Source of the DNA: Candidatus Binatia bacterium
GTDB taxonomy: Bacteria; Desulfobacterota; Binatia; Bin18
NCBI GenBank assembly: GCA_963664395.2
Contig: OY761159.2
Span: 352,001-416,000, forward strand
DNA: 64,000 nucleotides
Reading direction: 5' to 3'
A model generated the notes under the pieces. It made no database searches. It was not told the origin of the DNA and worked only from the letters and a program-made list of their open reading frames with translations. This document shows, in pieces, positions 9,547-63,735 of this stretch. A program made the position numbers and the translations under genes. Position 1 is the first letter of the stretch. The number at the start of each line of letters is the position of its first letter.

Positions 9547-9619
9547 CGGCCAGAGAGCACGGAAAAAAGCGACCAACCCGTACCCGTGCAGTCCCTGAAT
9601 CAGAAAGTGCAGGCTCTTC

Positions 9620-11674
9620 ATGCCCTTCAAACTTGGCGTTGACGTAGGTGGAACGTTTACTGATCTCGTCCTTTTTGACGAGGAGAGTGGCCGGCAAGTC
9701 CGAGCCAAAATTCCGTCTACCCCCGATGATCCATCAGTTGGCGTGCTTGCCGGTATTGATAAAATTTGCCACTTGGCCAATGTCTCACCCGGTGACATCG
9801 CCCAGATTATGCATGGGACGACCGTGGCAACCAACGCGGTCCTTGAGGGAAAAGGCGCGAAGGTTGGACTGATTACGACCCAGGGATTTAAGCAAATCCT
9901 CCATCTGGCTCGCTCCTGGACGCCGGGGCCACTCGCGGGCTGGATGATTATGGAGAAACCGGACCCGCCGGCGGCGCTGGAATATACTCGTGAGGCCATC
10001 GAACGCATGGACACCCGAGGTGAGGTGGTCACCCCACTGGACGAAGACGCGCTGCGAAAGGACCTGCAAGATTTAGGCGCACAAGGAATCGAAGCGCTGA
10101 CGATTTCTTTGATCAACTCGTATGCCAATCAAAGCCATGAAAAGCGCGCAAAAGAGATCGCCCAAGAGGTTCTGCCCAATACCCCTATTACCGCCTCATC
10201 AGAAGTGTTGCCGGAGTTTCGGGAATACGAACGCGCCCTGACCGCGGTGATGAATTCTTACGTGCGACCGAAGGTTGCCCAGTATATGAGCAGCTTTGCC
10301 GAGCAGTTAGCGGCGCATGGCCTGAAAGCAGACGTCAACATTCTCCGCTCTGACGCCGGCCTGATGACCTTGCGTATGGCGCAGGAACGGCCGGTATACG
10401 CCGTGATGTCAGGTCCGGCCGGTGGCGTCGCGGGGGCGCTGTATATTGCCAAAAAGGCAGGCTTCCCGCATTTGTTGACCCTCGATATGGGCGGCACGTC
10501 CACCGACGTGGCCCTGTGTCAGAATGGCAACCAGACTATTTCGCGTGAAACCACCCTGGGCTATTTCCCGATTAAGGTTCCTTCGGTCGATGTCCGCAGT
10601 ATCGGGGCCGGCGGCGGCTCCATTGCCCATGTGCCCGAAATTACCAGCGCGCTCCGGGTCGGTCCGCAGAGTGCCGGCGCCGTTCCCGGTCCGGCCAGCT
10701 ACGGCCAGGGTGGGACGGAGCCGACGGTGACAGACGCCAACGTTGTCCTTGGCCATCTCCCGCCCAATCTGCTGGGCGGAGAAATGACGCTGGATACGGA
10801 AGCCGCCACCGCTTCCGTTGAGCGGATTGGGAAAAAACTCGGCCTTGACGTGTATCAAACCGCCCAGGGCATTTTGGACATCGTGAATGAGAACATGCAC
10901 GGTGCCTTGCGTCTGGTCTCCGTCCAGCGCGGCTACGATCCACGTAATTTCGCCCTGGCCGCGTTTGGTGGCGCCGGTCCGCTGCACGCCAACGCGGTGG
11001 CCAAGCTGATCGGCTCATTCCCGGTTATCGTCCCCCCCGCACCGGGCATTTTATGCGCAATGGGCGATGTGTGTTGCGACTACCGTGAAGAATTCTCCCG
11101 GACCGTCTTCCGCACCCTGGATAGGATCACCGCGCCGGAGGTCATTGAGATACTCGAAGGGCTGAGCGCAGAGGCGACCGGCTGGTTGGAGCAGGAAGGC
11201 ATCTCTCGACAGCAGCAGCGGATTTTCTATAACGCCGACATGCGCTACTTCCGCCAGGGCTATGAACTACCGATGACGACAACGCTCGATGAGTTGCAAA
11301 CCAACGGAACGGCGGCGCTGGCGGAACAATTTCACGCCCTGCACGAACAGCTCTACCGCTTTCGTCTGGATGCCGAATGTGAAATCGTCAATCTTCGCGC
11401 AGTTGCCCTTGGCACGGGAACGACGTTGCACTGGCCCGAAGGCGAAATCGATGGACCGTCCGCGGCTCACGCCCAGGTTGACGAACACCGGATTTATTTT
11501 GATGGCGACTTTCTGACCACCTCGATTTATGATCGGGCCAAGCTCAAGCCAGGCAACCAACTGCCCGGTCCGGCGATTGTGACCGAGATGGACTCCACCA
11601 CGGTCGTCCTGCCGGATTATGCAGCAGAGGTGGACCGCTATGCGAATATCCTGATCCGACCAAGTCAGGATTAA
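9620..11674 (+). CDS. Hydantoinase A/5-oxoprolinase-family ATP-binding subunit
   Basis: GVDVGGTFTD, HGTTVATNA, SGPAGG, DMGGTSTD, GAGGGS, FGGAGPLHA motifs. Confidence 0.95.
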   Translation: MPFKLGVDVGGTFTDLVLFDEESGRQVRAKIPSTPDDPSVGVLAGIDKICHLANVSPGDIAQIMHGTTVATNAVLEGKGAKVGLITTQGFKQILHLARSWTPGPLAGWMIMEKPDPPAALEYTREAIERMDTRGEVVTPLDEDALRKDLQDLGAQGIEALTISLINSYANQSHEKRAKEIAQEVLPNTPITASSEVLPEFREYERALTAVMNSYVRPKVAQYMSSFAEQLAAHGLKADVNILRSDAGLMTLRMAQERPVYAVMSGPAGGVAGALYIAKKAGFPHLLTLDMGGTSTDVALCQNGNQTISRETTLGYFPIKVPSVDVRSIGAGGGSIAHVPEITSALRVGPQSAGAVPGPASYGQGGTEPTVTDANVVLGHLPPNLLGGEMTLDTEAATASVERIGKKLGLDVYQTAQGILDIVNENMHGALRLVSVQRGYDPRNFALAAFGGAGPLHANAVAKLIGSFPVIVPPAPGILCAMGDVCCDYREEFSRTVFRTLDRITAPEVIEILEGLSAEATGWLEQEGISRQQQRIFYNADMRYFRQGYELPMTTTLDELQTNGTAALAEQFHALHEQLYRFRLDAECEIVNLRAVALGTGTTLHWPEGEIDGPSAAHAQVDEHRIYFDGDFLTTSIYDRAKLKPGNQLPGPAIVTEMDSTTVVLPDYAAEVDRYANILIRPSQD

Positions 11675-55675: not shown

Positions 55676-56866
55676 TTATCTCGCTCGGTCGGCCTGATAC
55701 CAAATCCGCCCATCTTTGACTGTAAGATAGGCAACGAGTTTTTTCTCGCCGACCATATGGTTCTGGTCGGTATCGACAAAATCAAATGCGCCCTGTTCAA
55801 GACTGAGCACGGCGACATCGGCAATGGCACCGGGTCTGAGCGTTCCGAGTTGCTCAGCCTCTCCAATCACGCGGGCGGGATTGGTGGTGACGCAGCGGAT
55901 CACGTCTTCCAGGCCCATGCCCAGGTTTAAGAGCTTGGACATGGTCGTCGGCAGATCGAAGACCGGTCCTTTCGTCGCACTGGGGAGCGTCAGATCGGTC
56001 GCGATCGTGTCAGGCAAGAATCCCGCATCTAACGCCTGCTGCACAAATGGAAACGGAAAGTGCATGCGACCGTGCGCGCAGTCAAAAATAATACCCTCTT
56101 TTTGCGCGGCCCAGACTTCTTTGAGAATGGCCTTCTTTTCCGGGCCCATGATGCCGTATTCAAAACCGTGGAAGCAGTGGGTCACGACATCGCCCGGCTT
56201 GAGAAATTCCAGAATTTGAGGAACCGGCAGCAGCGCGTCTGTGATATGCACCATCAGTGGAACATTGGCCATATCCGCGGCTTGGCGCGCAAGACGCAGC
56301 GGCTCAGTTCCGGCAGAGTCAGGCACGACGTTGTTGCTAAAGCGGAGCTTAACGCCAATGGCAAGGTCACGATTATTGATGATCGTCCGGGCACAGCCCT
56401 CCGGGTCGGCATAATCCATATGCATTAACTCACCAACTTGGAGGTGCATCAGACCCAAGGCTGACAGATGGATAAAACAGCGCAACCGGACTTCACTATT
56501 GTTCGCCACATACTGACGTAATCCAGGGAAGGTGGCGGAACCAGAGCTGCCTGCGTCGATTATCGTTGTCACGCCACTCGCAGCACAGCGGCTATCGGTT
56601 TCAGTGCCCATATCGTGGGCATTTATAAACGTATGCGCGTGAATGTCGATCAGCCCAGGGCAGACAATCTTGCCTGATACGTCACGGACTCGGGCCGCTT
56701 GTGTCGCAGGAATGTCCACCGCAACAGTTGCTATTTTGCCGTTGCGGATCGCAACGTCGGCTTTTTGCGGCTTTTGATACTCAGACCAGCCAGGGTCAAT
56801 GACCTCGCCGCCTTTTATGAGGAGATCGTATTGCACTTTACGTTCTACTGCGTGAGACTGCGGCAT
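55676..56866 (-). CDS. Dihydroorotase-like amidohydrolase/deacetylase
   Basis: PGLIDIHAH, GVTT..DAGS, GVK, MVH, VTHCF, DCAHG, IATD; start placed at ATG 56866. Confidence 0.9.
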   Translation of the reverse strand: MPQSHAVERKVQYDLLIKGGEVIDPGWSEYQKPQKADVAIRNGKIATVAVDIPATQAARVRDVSGKIVCPGLIDIHAHTFINAHDMGTETDSRCAASGVTTIIDAGSSGSATFPGLRQYVANNSEVRLRCFIHLSALGLMHLQVGELMHMDYADPEGCARTIINNRDLAIGVKLRFSNNVVPDSAGTEPLRLARQAADMANVPLMVHITDALLPVPQILEFLKPGDVVTHCFHGFEYGIMGPEKKAILKEVWAAQKEGIIFDCAHGRMHFPFPFVQQALDAGFLPDTIATDLTLPSATKGPVFDLPTTMSKLLNLGMGLEDVIRCVTTNPARVIGEAEQLGTLRPGAIADVAVLSLEQGAFDFVDTDQNHMVGEKKLVAYLTVKDGRIWYQADRAR

Positions 56867-56918
56867 GAATGTCTCCTGTTCTTCCGGCCTGACACCGGAC
56901 TTGGACAGACGTGCGGTA

Positions 56919-59054
56919 CTACTCGATTGCCCGTCCCACTTTTCCTTCAAGCTCTTTGAGGAACTCGTTCCATTTTTCCCCCATGTTTGCTCTAAGCTTA
57001 TTGAATAAATCTTGCCGTTCCTCGGTGTTGAGCCAGTTATCCGTGTACCGAGCAATATCGACCTTGTAACCCTTTCCTCCACCCCAACGCTCTTGACAAT
57101 TGCCCCAGAGCTTAGAGTCTTCACGGAGTGGTTCTTCAAAGATGGCCTCACTTATTAGCTCTGCTTGCTTTTGCAATTGGCCGGAGCTTTCGGCGATGTA
57201 GTCTCGTAATTCGTCGACAAATGCTCGTGCCGGCTGCATATCTTCACCCTGCTTCAAATTGTCCAAGAGTGCGGTCAACATCTTAAGTTTCGGTTCGCTG
57301 GCGGCTACAAATATGGCCCTCACACCATAGGCGAGCACATCGTAGAAGTTCAAGTTGTACCAACTGCCTCTCCTATTGATAGATGCCCGTACACTAGAAG
57401 CGTAAGTGCTTTGGGCAACGATCGACTCCCGAAGAGATTCGGGAACTTGTTCAAGCTCGAATTCCAAGGATTTATTGTCCTGAATCCAGGTCTGAATCCT
57501 TTTTCCGATGTGTTTGTAGCAGGCTGATTCTTGATGCTTTTCAAGATTTTTTTCCAACTCCTTGACTTGACCTACAATGCCCTCAATCTTCTTGATGTGG
57601 TCTGCGCGCATGCGGTCAAGTCCCCCTTCGACGCTTTTGGAGAAAATCGATGGAGAATCCTCTTTTTGATTGAAAAACGTGATTTGTATATCCTTTAGCT
57701 GTAGCTCTTGGGCTAGGGCGACCTCAATATCAGCCCGTCTTACCTGTCGGCCGTCATCTCCATTGGCCACCCTAGAGCCATCGAAATCATTGACGCTCTC
57801 AGCCTCTTCTGAGCGATCTAGTACTACCAACTGTGCTTCGGTCAATAATCGCTCGCGTAGACCGCCCACCACGGCGTGCTTCAACACAGACCGTGACGTT
57901 TCATCAGGTGCGTCAAGAAAGCGTGAGCAAATGATGCAGAGTGCTCTGGGGTCATCAAAGAGCGCGGAGATATCCGACCGCGGAGCAAATTGATCCACTC
58001 CTTTAGTGTCTATGACCGATATATTGAGAGGCACTTCCCCATTAAGGACCATCTGCGGCACGATCACGTTTATTCGTTTGGGGACTGAGAATGACGGATT
58101 ACGGCCATGGTTGATTTTGGTGAATTCACCTTTGAGCCAATGTAAGGGGTCCTTCTCTCCAGAATTACTGTGCCAAAGTTCCCTATGAGTACGAACTCGC
58201 AAGTTCATGCGCTCAAGCATCTGTAGCTTGAATTTTTCCTTGTCTGTACTCGAACGCGCGAGGTTGATGGCCTCATCGATGACTTTCCGTGTAGCTGGAT
58301 CTCGCCTTTGGGCGAGGCCTGCCATGTTTCGGAGGCAGCGAGTTAATTCGGTGTTGAGGTTGGGAATGCTGTCACTAGGGCCGGAGTCGTTCACCCCACC
58401 ATCAGAAGCCATAGTCGCACGGGACAGGGTGTATTCGCAAAATTCGTCAATACAAACATCAATCTCCTCGTCATCACGCGGCTCGACGATCAATCCCCAA
58501 CTTGGTCCCTTGTTGATGACAACTTCACAGATCGTTGTCCGTCCACCGCCGTAGTCAAGGACTGGCTTGCCATCCAAAAGGAGGTGGGTCGCTGCACAAA
58601 TCGCGGTGGTCTTGCCTACCCCAATACTTCCGATAAATCCAACGGTATGATCGAGACTGAGGAGATATTTTACTGCGTTACGGAGCGAATTTCCGTAGAG
58701 GTCAATCTCGTCACGAATGAAGTCCGCCTCTGGAATATTCTCATTCTCAATCAATTTCTTAATGCGATGGAGCCCGTCGTTTGCCATCATGAGCGAATTC
58801 AAATTGGGGTGATCCAGGGGCGGTGTCGCTGCGAAGGCAACAGTGTCCCATTCGGATTCCAAGTATGCGCAGATTTTTTTCGCATAGGGCGAATCGACTT
58901 CCTCAAGATACCGATAAACCTCTTCAGCCGGTAGCTCTGGAGAGCTTTCCATGCGCGATATAGCGACCTGCGAAAGACCGAGTCGCTGCCCGACTTCGCG
59001 CTGAGACATTCGTTTCTGCTCCCGTTCTCCCGCCATCAGCTTTCCCAAGTGCAT
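56919..59054 (-). CDS. XRE-HTH-fused dynamin-like P-loop GTPase
   Basis: N-terminal MSQREVGQRLGLSQVAISRMES HTH; G1 GSIGVGKTT, G2 RTT, G3 DTKG; long helical C-terminus; AT-richer codons than flanks. Confidence 0.75.
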   Translation of the reverse strand: MHLGKLMAGEREQKRMSQREVGQRLGLSQVAISRMESSPELPAEEVYRYLEEVDSPYAKKICAYLESEWDTVAFAATPPLDHPNLNSLMMANDGLHRIKKLIENENIPEADFIRDEIDLYGNSLRNAVKYLLSLDHTVGFIGSIGVGKTTAICAATHLLLDGKPVLDYGGGRTTICEVVINKGPSWGLIVEPRDDEEIDVCIDEFCEYTLSRATMASDGGVNDSGPSDSIPNLNTELTRCLRNMAGLAQRRDPATRKVIDEAINLARSSTDKEKFKLQMLERMNLRVRTHRELWHSNSGEKDPLHWLKGEFTKINHGRNPSFSVPKRINVIVPQMVLNGEVPLNISVIDTKGVDQFAPRSDISALFDDPRALCIICSRFLDAPDETSRSVLKHAVVGGLRERLLTEAQLVVLDRSEEAESVNDFDGSRVANGDDGRQVRRADIEVALAQELQLKDIQITFFNQKEDSPSIFSKSVEGGLDRMRADHIKKIEGIVGQVKELEKNLEKHQESACYKHIGKRIQTWIQDNKSLEFELEQVPESLRESIVAQSTYASSVRASINRRGSWYNLNFYDVLAYGVRAIFVAASEPKLKMLTALLDNLKQGEDMQPARAFVDELRDYIAESSGQLQKQAELISEAIFEEPLREDSKLWGNCQERWGGGKGYKVDIARYTDNWLNTEERQDLFNKLRANMGEKWNEFLKELEGKVGRAIE

Positions 59055-59066
59055 TGTTGTTCCCCC

Positions 59067-59339
59067 CTAACGGCGATTAATCTTCCGTGTTCGCCGGCCG
59101 ATCGTGACGACCGCACCGTCAGACGATTCTATAAAATACAGAGGATCGGGTTTCTCGAAGTCGTGTTGCATAGCCTTCAGCGCCTCCAGGATTCGTCTGC
59201 GCTGTTGCCTGTTCGCTATCCAGACCTTTGCACTGCCTGGAGCTCTTTCAAATTGTCCGAAGTGTTTGATTAATTCGAGGGATAGCAATTGGCAGCCACG
59301 CTCTCTTGCCCGTAATTTCGCATGTCTAGTTAGTCGCAT
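59067..59339 (-). CDS. Small basic protein with a DUF4258/RelE-ColE5-like fold
   Basis: MRLTRHAKLRARERG N-terminus and DGAVVT C-terminal strand; RBS AGGAGA; ends 12 nt upstream of the GTPase start. Confidence 0.65.
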   Translation of the reverse strand: MRLTRHAKLRARERGCQLLSLELIKHFGQFERAPGSAKVWIANRQQRRRILEALKAMQHDFEKPDPLYFIESSDGAVVTIGRRTRKINRR

Positions 59340-59440
59340 TGCACATCTCCTCTCGCCCTTGTTGATGAATACAATCTCAACTATTAGCTAATTTAGGAGT
59401 TTTTATCAAGAATTAAATCTATAAATTTTCTCTTTTTAGT

Positions 59441-59512
59441 CGAATATATTCGCAATAAAAACTTCAACCTGATCGAATTGGGCAAATAATTGGGTTTACT
59501 TTTTAGGTAAAC
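59441..59512. promoter_or_regulatory. Candidate operators in a divergent AT-rich promoter region
   Basis: Perfect palindrome CGAATATATTCG (59441-59452) and IR GTTTAC-N7-GTAAAC (59494-59512). Confidence 0.5.
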
Positions 59513-59530
59513 TCCGGTAAATACCCACTG

Positions 59531-60868
59531 ATGGATTCTCAAAAAAAACAGCAAATTCCATCGGTACCGGAAGGTCATTTAGCGTTCGGGCAACGTCTAC
59601 GTGAGCAGCGTCAGGAAAAAGGGCTCTTGCTCTCTGATCTGGCAAAGGTGCTTGAAGTCACAAAAGGGTATCTTTCTCGCCTGGAGCGAGGGAAAGCAAA
59701 ACCCTCAAAAACCATTATTGGGTTGATAGCGCACGCGCTGAGTATTGATCCAGGCCCTCTGAAGGTTCTTGCAGGGGACTTCCCTGGTGATGTGAGGCAG
59801 ATTCTCTATCATCATCCCGAAGACGCCCCCACTCTCCTTCGAGAGATATTTGGAGAGTATGGTTCTCACGGTACCTCTCGTAAATCCGATGCTACAAGGA
59901 AAACAATTCCTCAAAAGAAACACGGCATAAAGCCATTTCAAAAAGAGCGCTATGAACTCATTCAGGCCAACTGTCTTGAATGGCTGGAACACCGTGCCTC
60001 CAATAGTATCCATGCTGTCGTCACTGATCCGCCCTACGGCTTAAAAGAATACACACCCGAGGAAAAGAAAAAACTCCGGCGCGGGCGTGGTGGCGTCTGG
60101 CGCATACCACCAACACTTGATGGATATACCCGCAGTCCGATTCCTCGCTTCACTGTGCTGACTCATGAAGATAAGAATTCTTTAAAGAAATTCTTTACGC
60201 AGTGGGCAACAAGAATTCAGCGAGTTCTCGTCCCTGGCGGACATACATTCATTGCTACCAACCCCCTTCTCTCCCACCTCGTTTATACTGCGTTGGAAGA
60301 GGCAGGCTTCGAGAAAAGAGGGGAGATTATCCGTCTCGTACAGACTCTCCGAGGTGGTGATCGGCCAAAGAATGCCCATAAAGAATTTGAGAACGTCACC
60401 GTCATGCCTCGCTCCTGTTGGGAACCTTGGGGGCTATTTAGAAAGCCCTGTCGAGGTCGAGTGCAGGATAATCTTCGTGAATGGCAGACAGGCGGCTTGC
60501 GGCGTGTCTCGGAAGAGCAGCCTTTTGGAGATGTTATCAAAAGCGCTCCAACCAGAGGGATAGAGCGAGAAATCGCTCCTCATCCATCCTTGAAACCGCA
60601 GGCTTTCATGCAGCAGATTGTTCGCGCCTCCCTTCCCTTAGGAGAAGGGATTATCCTTGATCCTTTTATGGGTGGAGGGTCTACGATAGCAGCAGCCTGC
60701 GCGGTAGGTTATCGCAGTATTGGGGTCGAAATAGACCGGGAGTATTACAAAATGGCCGTTCGGGCGATACCAAAGCTTGCAACCCTTGTCCTCGATAACG
60801 GAAATGGAAAAGTTCCCCCGTACCTCTCCCGTGGGCAAGTAGAACAGAAACCTCCCCTATTTTCATAA
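59531..60868 (+). CDS. XRE-HTH-fused beta-class DNA amino-methyltransferase
   Basis: N-terminal FGQRLREQR..GYLSRLERG HTH; VVTDPPY (motif IV), HPSLKP, ILDPFMGGGST (motif I). Confidence 0.9.
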   Translation: MDSQKKQQIPSVPEGHLAFGQRLREQRQEKGLLLSDLAKVLEVTKGYLSRLERGKAKPSKTIIGLIAHALSIDPGPLKVLAGDFPGDVRQILYHHPEDAPTLLREIFGEYGSHGTSRKSDATRKTIPQKKHGIKPFQKERYELIQANCLEWLEHRASNSIHAVVTDPPYGLKEYTPEEKKKLRRGRGGVWRIPPTLDGYTRSPIPRFTVLTHEDKNSLKKFFTQWATRIQRVLVPGGHTFIATNPLLSHLVYTALEEAGFEKRGEIIRLVQTLRGGDRPKNAHKEFENVTVMPRSCWEPWGLFRKPCRGRVQDNLREWQTGGLRRVSEEQPFGDVIKSAPTRGIEREIAPHPSLKPQAFMQQIVRASLPLGEGIILDPFMGGGSTIAAACAVGYRSIGVEIDREYYKMAVRAIPKLATLVLDNGNGKVPPYLSRGQVEQKPPLFS

Positions 60869-60883
60869 TCCGTCTTAGCCAGT

Positions 60884-61537
60884 TCACAAGAGTCCGGGAC
60901 CGTCCGCAAGAATCGAACGATGCTTCCCCACCCCAGTTCCAGGGCTTCGATATATAAAGTTATTTCGGAGTTTCTCTACACCATCTGTTGTAATTGAGGC
61001 GGTCGGAGTCCGCCGTGATTCCCCTTTACGTCCAGAGAAAGACCAGTCGTCTTTTGTCAGTTCGGCACAGAGGATTTCGACAAAAGTAAAAGGAACAATT
61101 TCTCCACTCTTCTGCTTTCCGACAACGTACCTAAAAACCATTAACCAACACTCTTCTGGATTGTGTCCTTGCCAACCACCTTTCTGGATAGAGCATTTGA
61201 CCTCAATCCCCTGGTCTCCCTTCAAGACAGCATTCGACGCATAAGAAGCTTTCGGGAGAAGGTCAGGATGCCCACCCACCTTCGTATTTGCTTCAAGCAC
61301 TGAAGAGGATTTAGCAATGTTCTTGACTAAGAATTCGGAGATGATCCCCGATAGGGAGTTGCCGAGGAGCAACTCTTCTAGGGGTCGAAATCCATTCTGC
61401 CTGAGATAATCGTTAAGACCATGGGAAAGACGATAAGTTTCCGCAACTGATTTCTCAACTTCTTCTACTGTAAACCCATAGGGGAGAATAGCGCGTCTGT
61501 TCACGTAGCCCTTATCAAGGACTCCTGGCAACTCCAC
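60884..61537 (-). CDS. Putative type II restriction endonuclease (PD-(D/E)xK)
   Basis: SE..GGHPDLL..GIEVK motif; convergent with the methyltransferase; low GC. Confidence 0.7.
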   Translation of the reverse strand: MELPGVLDKGYVNRRAILPYGFTVEEVEKSVAETYRLSHGLNDYLRQNGFRPLEELLLGNSLSGIISEFLVKNIAKSSSVLEANTKVGGHPDLLPKASYASNAVLKGDQGIEVKCSIQKGGWQGHNPEECWLMVFRYVVGKQKSGEIVPFTFVEILCAELTKDDWSFSGRKGESRRTPTASITTDGVEKLRNNFIYRSPGTGVGKHRSILADGPGLL

Positions 61538-62240: not shown

Positions 62241-63344
62241 CTAACGATTCACAAATCGCAACACGCTCACTCCTCCGGTCTGCGAATGGCCCAGGGGGAC
62301 CTTGGTAATCAGGTCCAGGGATTCGGCGTCGTAGACCGCGACATCGTGCCAGTTGCTGCCGCAGTAGACCTTCTTGCCTTCGGGGTGAATGAGCGGCGCG
62401 AAATAGGTATTGGACAGGGGTATTTTTTTCTCAATGTGGCGTGTTTTGGGATCAACCTTCCACAAATTATTGTATGCAAAATATGCCTTGTTCGTATGCC
62501 GCGAGAGCGCACCAGTGATCACATAGTCACCCTCGACAAAGGGTTGGAGTTCAACAATTTTCAGTTCCGGGTCTTCCTGGGTGAGGTCAAGCGAGCCGAT
62601 GCCCAGCGTCGTCTGATTGGTAATGGAATCTTGGGTAAACGTACCAAAAGAGACAAGATGGCCACTTTCCTGATAGGTTCCGCCAAGCGGCAGGCCGTCG
62701 GTTCTCGTAATGCCACTGATGTTACGATTGGCAAGGGGAATGGTATCGAGCAGTGTTCCGTCTTCCGTACTATGCACAAAAATATCTTGCCCGACACTGA
62801 ACAAATAGAGGCGCTTTCCATCCTTTGAAGACGCAAGCCCCATCACCTGGCGGGGAGCAGGAAACGTTGTCGCCGTCTCATTGGTCTCCAGGTTGATGAC
62901 CCGTATCCGATTTTCTTGGGCAGTGTAGCGACCCAGGTCTTGCTTGATTGGCATTTCGTGCACGAACAGGCGGGTGCCTTGCGTATTCACATCGATCGCC
63001 ATGGTTCGCACGAGTTCATTGTCGTTCGACAAGTCAAAGCTCTTGACCTGCTTGCCCTCGTCCAGGTCAACCATGGCCACGCTTCTGGCCAGATTGTTCA
63101 CCACATAGGCAAACTGTGGCTGAGCAGGATTGGGCGCAATATACAGGGCCGGCCCTCGACCATTGAGGGCAATATCTTTGACGACCGTATCCGTTTCCGT
63201 ATCGACAATAACCAGATTATTCGGATGAGTGCTGGCCAAGAGATACCACTTTGCCCAGGCCGTCTGCGGAACGACCCCAAACAAGAAGAGAACACCCCAC
63301 ACAAGCTGCCTGTGTTTTGCGTGCACCACCCGCTCCTTCAGCAC
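62241..63344 (-). CDS. qhpB: Quinohemoprotein amine dehydrogenase beta subunit
   Basis: Signal peptide, YVTN-type beta-propeller, PNNL..VD, FPAPRQ; directly after qhpC. Confidence 0.85.
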   Translation of the reverse strand: MLKERVVHAKHRQLVWGVLFLFGVVPQTAWAKWYLLASTHPNNLVIVDTETDTVVKDIALNGRGPALYIAPNPAQPQFAYVVNNLARSVAMVDLDEGKQVKSFDLSNDNELVRTMAIDVNTQGTRLFVHEMPIKQDLGRYTAQENRIRVINLETNETATTFPAPRQVMGLASSKDGKRLYLFSVGQDIFVHSTEDGTLLDTIPLANRNISGITRTDGLPLGGTYQESGHLVSFGTFTQDSITNQTTLGIGSLDLTQEDPELKIVELQPFVEGDYVITGALSRHTNKAYFAYNNLWKVDPKTRHIEKKIPLSNTYFAPLIHPEGKKVYCGSNWHDVAVYDAESLDLITKVPLGHSQTGGVSVLRFVNR

Positions 63345-63375
63345 GATGCGTTAAGATACTTTTTCTGAGCCGGAC

Positions 63376-63717
63376 TTATTCGATTTTGGGAAAGACAACG
63401 TCCAGGTTGCGCCAGTCTTCCTGATTCATACCTGAGCAGCCTTTGGCCCACTCGGGCGAGTTCTGGAGGCTGTCCGGCACCTGAGCTGGCCACCAGCACA
63501 GATTCGAACAGCTCAGCAGGTCGGCTTCCATGGGGGCACACATGCTGCTTGCCCCGCCCCACGAATTCGCCTCCCAGCCTGGATTAAAGATGGTCGTGCA
63601 GCCAACAGGTTGCGCCATACCCACGACATCTTCCTCTACCTCTTTTTTGGTCGCGGATTTTTCCACAACGGCGGTGACGGCCACTGCTTTGCGATTCGCT
63701 GCTTTGAGGTGTTTCAT
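63376..63717 (-). CDS. qhpC: Quinohemoprotein amine dehydrogenase gamma subunit (CTQ precursor with leader)
   Basis: MKHLK leader; GCTT.F.PGWE, C.PME.DL..C...CWWPAQVPD, DWR.L..VFP. Confidence 0.95.
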   Translation of the reverse strand: MKHLKAANRKAVAVTAVVEKSATKKEVEEDVVGMAQPVGCTTIFNPGWEANSWGGASSMCAPMEADLLSCSNLCWWPAQVPDSLQNSPEWAKGCSGMNQEDWRNLDVVFPKIE

Positions 63718-63735
63718 GCTCTGCTCCCCATGCCT

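Follow-up and report, generated by a model that had tools for sequence, protein, structure and literature searches.

We describe a two-gene cassette on the reverse strand of a 64,000-nucleotide (nt) stretch of a Candidatus Binatia genome (assembly GCA_963664395.2, contig OY761159.2, positions 352,001 to 416,000; hereafter the window, in whose coordinates positions are given). The cassette codes for P0002, a very basic protein of 90 amino acids (aa), and P0001, a 711-aa protein in which an XRE-type helix-turn-helix (HTH) head is joined to a dynamin-fold P-loop nucleoside triphosphatase (NTPase), and the two genes transfer together as an exact unit, horizontally, within one clade. P0001 belongs to a large family, some members of which have a TIR or SAVED domain where P0001 has its HTH head. 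A new defence or toxin-antitoxin-like module is plausible on these features, and the reading we prefer, with a probability of about 45%, is that of a self-contained, horizontally mobile conflict module in which the NTPase would act as a switch controlling a small BECR-type toxin. The features of the locus are as follows.

59067..59339, reverse strand: gene 1 (P0002, 90 aa), an open reading frame (ORF) for a very basic DUF4258-like or BECR-like candidate toxin
59055..59066, reverse strand: intergenic spacer of 12 nt, beginning with GGGGGGA, the ribosome-binding site of gene 2
56919..59054, reverse strand: gene 2 (P0001, 711 aa), an ORF for an XRE HTH head and a probably soluble dynamin-fold P-loop NTPase
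58857..59054, reverse strand: gene 2 codons 1–66, five-helix XRE-type HTH head (Pfam HTH_3, AlphaFold helices)
57672..58652, reverse strand: gene 2 codons 135–461, NTPase domain (alignment invariants, predicted secondary structure)
56922..57653, reverse strand: gene 2 codons 468–711, all-helical stalk with eight long helices (AlphaFold, alignment)
59340..59494, reverse strand: AT-rich region upstream of the operon, with one sigma-70-like site overlapping an imperfect palindrome
56836..59581, no strand assigned: extent of the inserted cassette (genus comparison)

The two genes are co-oriented with a 12-nt gap and a ribosome-binding site for each; GAGAGGAG stands upstream of the ATG of the 90-aa gene, and a terminator scan finds no terminator-like site between the two. 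They lie in a block (about 56750–61500) with a GC content of 0.41–0.53, compared with 0.55–0.62 on both flanks, one flank being metabolic (amidohydrolase, MaoC dehydratase and HpcH aldolase genes) and the other, past a restriction-modification (R-M) pair, containing a nitroreductase gene. An earlier reading of the letters alone (the sequence-only reading) had described two adjacent ORFs, each with a ribosome-binding site, in an AT-richer block among metabolic genes, and the coordinates, spacer sequence, GC profile and flank annotation bear this out. Both genes are under purifying selection relative to their copies in genome G046 (nonsynonymous to synonymous rate ratio, dN/dS, 0.17 for gene 1 and 0.28 for gene 2), and therefore encode proteins under constraint.

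Upstream of the operon, a sigma-70-like site (TTGATA-18-AATAGT, 59409–59380) overlaps an imperfect palindrome at 59369–59406 with the core TTAGCTAA, and together these may form the promoter and operator of the cassette; no conservation of the upstream region is seen in the related loci of G046, L097 or L096. Contigs from RNA libraries match the locus at 100% identity and a depth of 2–4, at 56804–57117 (X18), 57105–57309 (X19) and 59029–59212 (X20, whose library type is a guess), and since these are contigs rather than reads and DNA carry-over is possible, they show neither transcription nor co-transcription; X23 yielded no match.

The case for a two-gene unit comes from comparison with related genomes. 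Homologues of P0001 are present in two of 101 related genomes (G000, the genome of the window itself, and G046) and in none of the 27 other genomes of the same genus. A P0002 homologue directly followed by a P0001 homologue is found at four of the five loci with available DNA: the window, G046, and the metagenome contigs L097 and L096, where the small gene is directly before the start of the HTH-NTPase gene. The short spacing is kept, at about 15 nt in G046 and L097 and 12 nt in L096. G046 represents another genus of the same family as the source genome, and its cassette proteins are 80% and 72–73% identical to the window pair; DNA homology between the two (blastn) covers exactly 56932–59355, with 79.5% identity over 2440 nt, and ends at both gene ends. 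With a GC content of 50%, the G046 cassette stands out as an islet from the 64% of its genome, and the flanking genes code for short-chain dehydrogenases, luciferase-like monooxygenases, a SnoaL protein and an acyl-CoA dehydrogenase. The operon proposed earlier is thus co-inherited as a unit at the window, G046, L097 and L096, the loci at which the close NTPase clade (58–78% identity) shows the pairing, and the small gene is an add-on of that clade. The fifth locus, in G037, a congener of G046 (L099, C2 about 9548–9890), has a truncated small gene (an 86-aa ORF with a divergent C-terminus). Compared with the G046 locus L098, it has lost the NTPase gene to a deletion, along with neighbouring metabolic genes over about 2.2 kb, and is thus a decayed copy of the cassette. 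Structure prediction of a P0001–P0002 complex scored 0.00 in two runs made without folded controls, which is evidence neither for nor against binding.

P0001 is acidic, with an isoelectric point (pI) of 5.3, and Pfam, NCBIfam and PADLOC recognize in it the XRE HTH alone, at residues 3–50 (HTH_3, E 2e-5, 25.0 bits against a cut-off of 23); no Pfam Dynamin_N (PF00350) match is found at E<=1. Sequence searches of the PDB with P0001 and with its alignment likewise return HTH domains, in the profile search those of C.BclI, HipB and HigA, and otherwise mitofusin-2 at E 0.1. The remainder of the protein is recognizable by its fold. The AlphaFold model made from 40 homologues has a pLDDT of 87.8 and a pTM of 0.72, and its best Foldseek match in the PDB is the Synechocystis dynamin-like protein SynDLP (7zw6, E 1.2e-9), with a probability of 1.00 also for the Campylobacter dynamin-like protein (DLP) 5oxf, BDLP (2j68), mitofusins 1 and 2, IniA, Drp1, dynamin and Mx. 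These dynamin matches span E 1.2e-9 to 1e-5, and the alignments to BDLP-type proteins (E 1.2e-9 to 1e-6) extend over 600–800 columns. Identity is about 12% (11–13%) and the TM-scores are low, at 0.16–0.29, as is expected of flexible multi-domain proteins. In the protein atlas, clusters bearing Dynamin_N are placed with P0001 at 0.95. An HTH-fused dynamin-like NTPase, as the sequence-only reading had it, is therefore well founded in the fold.

The order of elements along P0001 is the HTH head, a linker (W69...PPLDHP, with W69, P78 and P83 invariant), two long helices predicted at residues 85–132, the P-loop domain and the stalk. The G1 motif is GSIGVGKTT (142–150), in which G142 and K148 are invariant in 40 sequences and also in forms with TIR and SAVED heads, and the G2 motif is GGGRTT (169–174), in which G171 and T174 are invariant in 40 family members; from its position, T174 is inferred to be the switch-I threonine. 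The G3 motif is DTKG (349–352), with D349 invariant in both alignments and T350 and G352 nearly invariant in the 40-sequence alignment and invariant in that with the TIR and SAVED forms. There is no conserved copy of a G4 motif ([NT]KxD) across the 40 family members; the equivalent site, following a strand at 407–412, reads LDRSEE (412–417) within the family consensus LVL[DP]RxxEA, in which E417 is invariant, and because G4 is degenerate the nucleotide bound by P0001 may be GTP or ATP. The G1, G2 and G3 motifs and the atypical G4 region (LDRSE, 412–416) had been picked out from the sequence alone and are upheld by these invariants. The stretch of about 130 aa between G2 and G3 (residues 195–324) is in our view an insert peculiar to the family, a judgement based on how the predicted strands and helices follow one another rather than on a structural superposition; its invariant residues include E236, R239, R242, R288, W306, N315 and G317. 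The stalk has two conserved loops, SVRAS.NRRGSW.NL (552–568) and W657-G-x-G-x-G-Y663. No hydrophobic paddle or transmembrane segment is detected in P0001, the highest 19-residue Kyte-Doolittle mean being 1.35, and the protein is probably soluble.

The family to which P0001 belongs is large and widely spread. An exhaustive HMMER search yields 829 clusters (at 50% identity) with E<=1e-3, 537 with E<=1e-10 and 214 with E<=1e-30, and a scan of one genome per species gave 106 encoding genomes, of which 80 were kept as distant loci (<=35% identity). Members occur in Planctomycetota, Pseudomonadota, Actinomycetota, Acidobacteriota, Cyanobacteriota, Verrucomicrobiota, Chloroflexota and Myxococcota, and one further encoding bin is labelled as an archaeon. 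Database names for these proteins are 'helix-turn-helix transcriptional regulator' or 'helix-turn-helix domain-containing protein' only, and in nine members tested, no PADLOC model matches the NTPase core.

The head of the protein is exchanged in some relatives. Ten were surveyed, picked for atypical length or match span from 150 listed. In three of them (P0199, P0209 and P0216) the HTH gives way to an N-terminal TIR_2 domain (E 2.8e-18 to 2.5e-20), and one (P0166) has a SAVED head, which scores 29.3 bits with Pfam, above the cut-off, and matches the PADLOC CBASS model 'Effector SAVED_peptidaseM48' at 1.1e-22. Aligned with P0001, the TIR and SAVED forms retain the linker, the NTPase motifs, the insert residues and the stalk loops, and one of them, P0216, approaches Pfam Dynamin_N (7.9e-5, 23.2 bits, below the cut-off of 27). 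The family tail is modular as well, since additional C-terminal domains are present in P0083 (sigma-70 region 4) and P0164 (a Di19-type zinc finger). The HTH is ancestral to the family and was not acquired along with the candidate toxin. The NTPase body thus stays constant while the head may be HTH, TIR or SAVED, an architecture typical of immune switches and effectors; the argument is one by association, and this head swapping is in our analysis the strongest argument for a conflict role of the family.

The small protein is more difficult to place. P0002 has a pI of 11.4, and its homologues form 11 clusters, nine of exactly 90 aa; an alignment search at E<=0.001, which is weak evidence on this point, found no longer or fused forms. 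Its AlphaFold model (pLDDT 76) has the layout a-a-b-b-a-b-b. Sequence searches of the PDB with P0002 and with its alignment return nothing meaningful; in the fold search of the PDB, colicin E5 RNase chains rank 2, 3, 4 and 11 at non-significant E values of 0.9–1.6, with BrnT at rank 43. In BFVD, an unnamed protein ranks first (E 0.13, TM-score 0.53/0.66) and a phage DUF4258 domain-containing protein ranks sixth, also non-significantly (E 0.39, TM-score 0.49). The atlas places DUF4258-named clusters with P0002 at 0.92.

A paralogous family of 89-aa proteins, 28–31% identical to P0002, is present in nine of the 27 other same-genus genomes and once in G000, and aligns with P0002 in hhalign at 96.3% (E 2e-9, 85 columns). 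These paralogues score 16.5–22.7 bits against the DUF4258 model PF14076, below its cut-off of 25. Fifteen residues are invariant across the two families, including T4, H6, A7, R10, R14, R47, Y68, G75, T79, G81 and R83. At seven of ten paralogue loci (L084–L092 relatives, G000) a protein of 115–157 aa is encoded directly upstream of the 89-aa gene, and weak, sub-threshold HTH matches are found in the two of these proteins that were scanned. The next gene at several of the 89-aa loci codes for a protein whose C-terminus is hydrophobic (the complete ones have 241 aa and 230 aa), and in G000 (C1:293331-296420; L093/L110) the 89-aa gene is fused in frame to the downstream gene as a 342-aa ORF. The paralogue loci may represent a three-part toxin-antitoxin-like system.

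Like the DUF4258 proteins, P0002 is small and basic, starts with a helix motif (T-x-H-A-x-x-R-x-x-x-R) and has an HTH-bearing partner encoded downstream; unlike them, it fails the PF14076 model and has an extra predicted helix (44–56) between its strand pairs, and its partner is a 711-aa NTPase rather than a small antitoxin. Gerdes 2025 (PMC11980606) places DUF4258 among the toxins of the RelE/ParE BECR superfamily and gives its activity as not known, and a 2026 preprint (10.64898/2026.08.28.747851) puts it in a colicin-like BECR branch that overlaps Ntox49, a placement that agrees with the colicin E5 fold matches of P0002. In G000 there are at least five full-length DUF4258 genes scoring over the cut-off (PF14076). 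All five have an MqsA-like zinc-ribbon gene after them, and in one of these partners a C-terminal HTH part is visible:

L103, C1:2217568: DUF4258 gene over the PF14076 cut-off
L104, C1:2065232: DUF4258 gene over the PF14076 cut-off
L105, C8:15798: DUF4258 gene over the PF14076 cut-off
L106, C1:2579793: DUF4258 gene over the PF14076 cut-off
L107, C1:4738897: DUF4258 gene over the PF14076 cut-off

This set of DUF4258/MqsA-like pairs is unusually rich. The gene order, toxin followed by DNA-binding partner, is common to these pairs and the cassette. The chance that P0002 is a BECR-type toxin appears to us slightly better than even, and it would then probably be a colicin-E5-like RNase toxin recruited by one NTPase clade only. 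The DUF4258/BECR assignment made from the letters alone is weakly supported, by the N-terminal TxHAxxR motif, the sub-threshold link through the paralogues and the non-significant fold matches; P0002 itself does not reach the Pfam threshold.

Comparison with described systems shows partial resemblances. The BDLP- and mitofusin-type DLPs of known structure (Nostoc BDLP, 2j68/2j69; Synechocystis SynDLP, 7zw6; Campylobacter DLP1/2, 5oxf/5owv; Mycobacterium IniA, 6j72) have, as P0001 has, a large P-loop NTPase domain with G1–G3 motifs and a helical stalk, but P0001 differs from them in having no [NT]KxD G4, no Dynamin_N match, no detected paddle or transmembrane segment, and the insert of about 130 aa. 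To our knowledge, an N-terminal XRE HTH is present in none of BDLP, SynDLP, Campylobacter DLP and IniA. The TIR domains of P0199, P0209 and P0216 and the SAVED domain of P0166, at the position of the P0001 HTH, recall CBASS SAVED effectors and TIR-fused immune NTPases; P0001 itself has neither domain, and no CD-NTase or other signal generator is nearby. PrrC and RloC, anticodon nucleases guarding type I R-M systems, are ABC-type ATPases fused to the nuclease. The analogy with them lies in an NTPase-regulated latent RNase beside an R-M system; the cassette differs in fold, has no sequence relation to them, and its linkage to R-M genes is not conserved.

Among anti-phage systems of the same fold class, Millman et al. 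2022 (10.1101/2022.05.11.491447) report that Eleos occurs in defence islands and that its P-loop mutants lose defence, and B. subtilis DynA is described (PMC8844932) as a dynamin-fold protein implicated in phage defence. Eleos/LeoABC and DynA share with P0001 a dynamin-fold NTPase, and Eleos/LeoABC consist of two or three consecutive dynamin-like genes, whereas the cassette has one soluble HTH-headed protein and a 90-aa non-dynamin partner; no PADLOC Eleos or Leo model matches in the cassette. The DO-GTPases are TRAFAC-type GTPases proposed by Kaur et al. 2020 (PMC7159879) as switches controlling effector deployment in conflict systems. They have N-terminal zinc ribbons and a Walker-B glutamate, occur as paralogous pairs and require GAP1 as a partner, and no such feature is seen in the present case. 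DO-GTPase/GAP1 was rejected as the family of P0001, as was SrfC (Virul_Fac; atlas 0.95), because in each case there is no Pfam match and the defining features are absent.

The neighbourhoods of family members include defence genes at a number of loci. The tally covers the two nearest ORFs per side at 40 of the 80 distant loci (146 of 294 selected ORFs, longest-ORF rule), and at E<=1e-8 includes SspB (1), DrmD (3), DrmA (2), BrxHI/II (2), PLD-helicase (2), type I S subunits (2), capP (2) and mad8 (2); Pfam matches include MmeI, Abi_2, CTD10 of ABC-3C, HAD_SAK_2 and Peptidase_M78. The family is also found on 19 plasmid records, nine of them conjugative, and no P0001 homologue is found in the phage collection. 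In five of seven annotated plasmid contexts there are adjacent methylase, HNH, DUF262, toxin-antitoxin or AAA-ATPase/helicase genes; for example, the Roseomonas context combines a MazF/PrlF pair with a methyltransferase gene and two HNH genes, that of Agrobacterium has AAA ATPases and a large N6 methylase, and that of Aminobacter has an AAA ATPase and a helicase. On the strength of such defence-island contexts and the TIR- and SAVED-headed relatives, a defence-type role of the cassette is plausible.

The cassette adjoins, and is divergent from, a pair of R-M genes:

59531-60868, forward strand: HTH-fused N6/N4 DNA methylase (N6_N4_Mtase 5.7e-21, HTH_3 1.5e-11, PADLOC MTase_II 2.8e-120)
60884-61537, reverse strand: putative endonuclease, 217 aa, convergent with the methylase gene (weak REase_II match, 3.8e-7)

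The divergent R-M neighbour had been recognized in the sequence-only reading, and is confirmed by a strong match for the HTH-methylase and a weak one for the endonuclease. The methylase has its own N-terminal XRE HTH, resembling a fused controller protein. The methylase region (59582 onward) is present at 81–87% identity in 11 of the 27 other same-genus genomes, none of which has the cassette, and only in G018 and G014 does it run on unbroken across the endonuclease gene and the right flank, such that many relatives may keep an orphan methylase. Among the matches listed from the 27 genomes, none falls inside 56836–59581; a left-flank match from G024 extends to about 56885, and six further matches are unlisted. 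The left flank is conserved too, but in relatives other DNA separates it from the methylase gene, which marks the site as a variable hotspot. Within the genus the methylase gene has the longer history, and the cassette was inserted beside it later and separately. Relatives' DNA in the hotspot, between the amidohydrolase and methylase genes, includes stretches 70–78% identical to window positions 62759–63718, part of which is a beta-propeller gene (62241–63344).

Building on the gene structure, fold, motifs, family size and distribution, head swapping, co-transfer and purifying selection that are observed, we infer how such a conflict module might work, the toxicity of P0002, its physical binding, the trigger and an anti-phage effect all being conditional. 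In an uninfected cell, the acidic HTH-NTPase would repress the operon through its HTH and hold the basic toxin inactive. A trigger, for instance invading DNA detected through the HTH or a phage protein or nucleotide detected by the core, would then bring about an NTP-dependent conformational change or oligomerization of the NTPase, by which the toxin would be freed or activated; the active toxin would arrest growth, resulting in abortive infection.

A number of observations weigh against this reading. No P0002-like ORF is found within 1.5 kb at any of the 80 distant loci, even at E<=10 with a P0002 hidden Markov model, which means that the NTPase has its own function and can do without P0002. 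P0002 has no Pfam, NCBIfam or PADLOC match, with no hmmscan match to PF14076 at E<=1; all of its fold-search matches have E>=0.13; a six-frame genome search with PF14076 finds six places over the cut-off, with P0002 absent at E<=10; and hhalign of P0002 against six DUF4258-type proteins of the genome (five over the Pfam cut-off and one below) gives 9% over 21 N-terminal columns. Promoter-like sites number two, against 2.7 expected, and neither the palindrome nor the terminators exceed the shuffled expectation. Many neighbours of the family are housekeeping genes (e.g. aconitase and glutamine synthetase) in a tally that has no matched control and crude ORF calls, the Citrobacter IncU plasmid and the Rhizobium megaplasmid (two of the seven contexts) have no defence-like neighbours, and none of ten ORFs flanking the G046 cassette has an R-M or defence domain, leaving it with no adjacent defence gene. 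The proposal of a toxin controlled by a GTPase-sensor antitoxin thus needs revising: the pairing is real, and the expected co-occurrence of the two genes holds at the close-clade loci compared, but it fails at the distant loci. The main rival explanation is that the NTPase alone is the whole system, as in most lineages, acting as a single-gene defence or a DNA or membrane effector, with P0002 a non-toxic, clade-specific accessory (a regulator, adaptor, inhibitor or nucleic-acid-binding cofactor). The absence of a conserved partner gene fits this explanation (the largest neighbour cluster, by all-against-all BLAST, is present at five of the 80 distant loci, and no Pfam family recurs in more than three of the 146 neighbour ORFs), as do the upstream ORFs abutting distant family genes, which resemble translations of non-coding DNA, the SAVED-headed relative that puts the dynamin core at the position of a CBASS effector, and the sub-threshold standing of every toxin assignment for P0002. 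It fits less well with a small gene that is coupled to gene 2, co-transferred with it and constrained at a dN/dS of 0.17, and whose product has the basicity, the TxHAxxR motif and, in its paralogues, the HTH pairing of toxin families, and we consider it unlikely.

The same pairing could be that of a plain addiction-type toxin-antitoxin module with no role against phages, the HTH-NTPase being a large antitoxin and autorepressor and the module stabilizing itself or its island. Toxin-first gene order ahead of an HTH protein, the opposed pI values (11.4 and 5.3), the minimal mobile unit among metabolic genes in G046 and the family's occurrence on the 19 plasmid records are all in keeping with this, but a 711-aa NTPase with a conserved catalytic site exceeds the needs of an antitoxin, the NTPase family is mostly toxin-free, and the TIR and SAVED swaps indicate immune signalling; we regard it as quite unlikely. 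The decayed G037 copy is uninformative on addiction, since what the small gene lost together with the NTPase gene is its 3' part, which codes for the conserved C-terminus of the candidate toxin. A housekeeping or regulatory role, either as an NTP-sensing transcription factor or as a dynamin that remodels membrane or nucleoid, with the small ORF a minor regulator, would match the NCBI label 'helix-turn-helix transcriptional regulator' and those loci that lie among metabolic genes; sporadic distribution (two of 101 related genomes), foreign GC content, plasmid occurrence, TIR- and SAVED-headed relatives and the lack of conserved neighbours to regulate make it improbable. The suggestion in the sequence-only reading that the pair guards the adjacent R-M system in the manner of PrrC, releasing the toxin when a phage inhibits restriction, draws on the divergent operon that adjoins the HTH-methylase/endonuclease pair, and methylase or R-M genes are near family members in four of the seven plasmid contexts. 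The G046 surroundings and the genus comparison remove the basis for this model, as the same cassette stands there with no R-M genes and the methylase, present in relatives that have no cassette, was acquired separately; in addition, neither protein is related to PrrC or RloC or has an ABC ATPase or anticodon-nuclease domain, and guarding of this kind is very improbable.

Mx dynamin-like proteins act in animal antiviral immunity. Dynamin-like defence proteins (DynA, Eleos/LeoABC) and DUF4258-type toxins are already known. As the sequence-only reading suspected, the architecture described here is an unfamiliar one: there is no PADLOC, NCBIfam or Pfam model for it, and the literature searched, which did not extend to supplementary tables that may list candidate families (e.g. 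Millman Table S5 and Gerdes 2025 Table S1), contains no account that we found of a soluble dynamin-fold family with HTH, TIR or SAVED heads or of its pairing with a toxin. A more ambitious proposal, which we advance tentatively and think rather doubtful, is that the family as a whole comprises undescribed single-protein immune switches or effectors, of which this clade has captured a DUF4258/colicin-E5-like RNase as a trans-acting toxin; if true, the cassette would be the first dynamin-regulated abortive-infection module of the toxin-antitoxin type. Single genes or two-gene cassettes provide a simple genetic handle on how dynamin-like proteins sense or stop infection, the TIR and SAVED forms connect it with immunity based on nicotinamide adenine dinucleotide (NAD) and cyclic nucleotides, and a candidate RNase toxin under NTPase control would, if true, join dynamin switches to abortive infection of the toxin-antitoxin type. 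For the family as a whole, the database label of transcriptional regulator is corrected.

We note finally that other lineages of the family may have partners of their own. In Sphingopyxis (L101, 3149–7265) and Sphingobium (L111, 5971–10087) plasmids, a gene for DUF262, which we take to be the GmrSD-type N-terminal domain, is located 20–29 nt downstream of the HTH-dynamin gene, in company with methylase, HNH, RelE/HigA and helicase genes, and with this HTH-dynamin and DUF262 arrangement the family may have another two-gene variant. An ORF of about 194–211 aa, starting within a few bases of the HTH-dynamin stop codon, is common to four of the distant loci (L018, L063, L071 and one further), and is a candidate for another lineage-specific partner.

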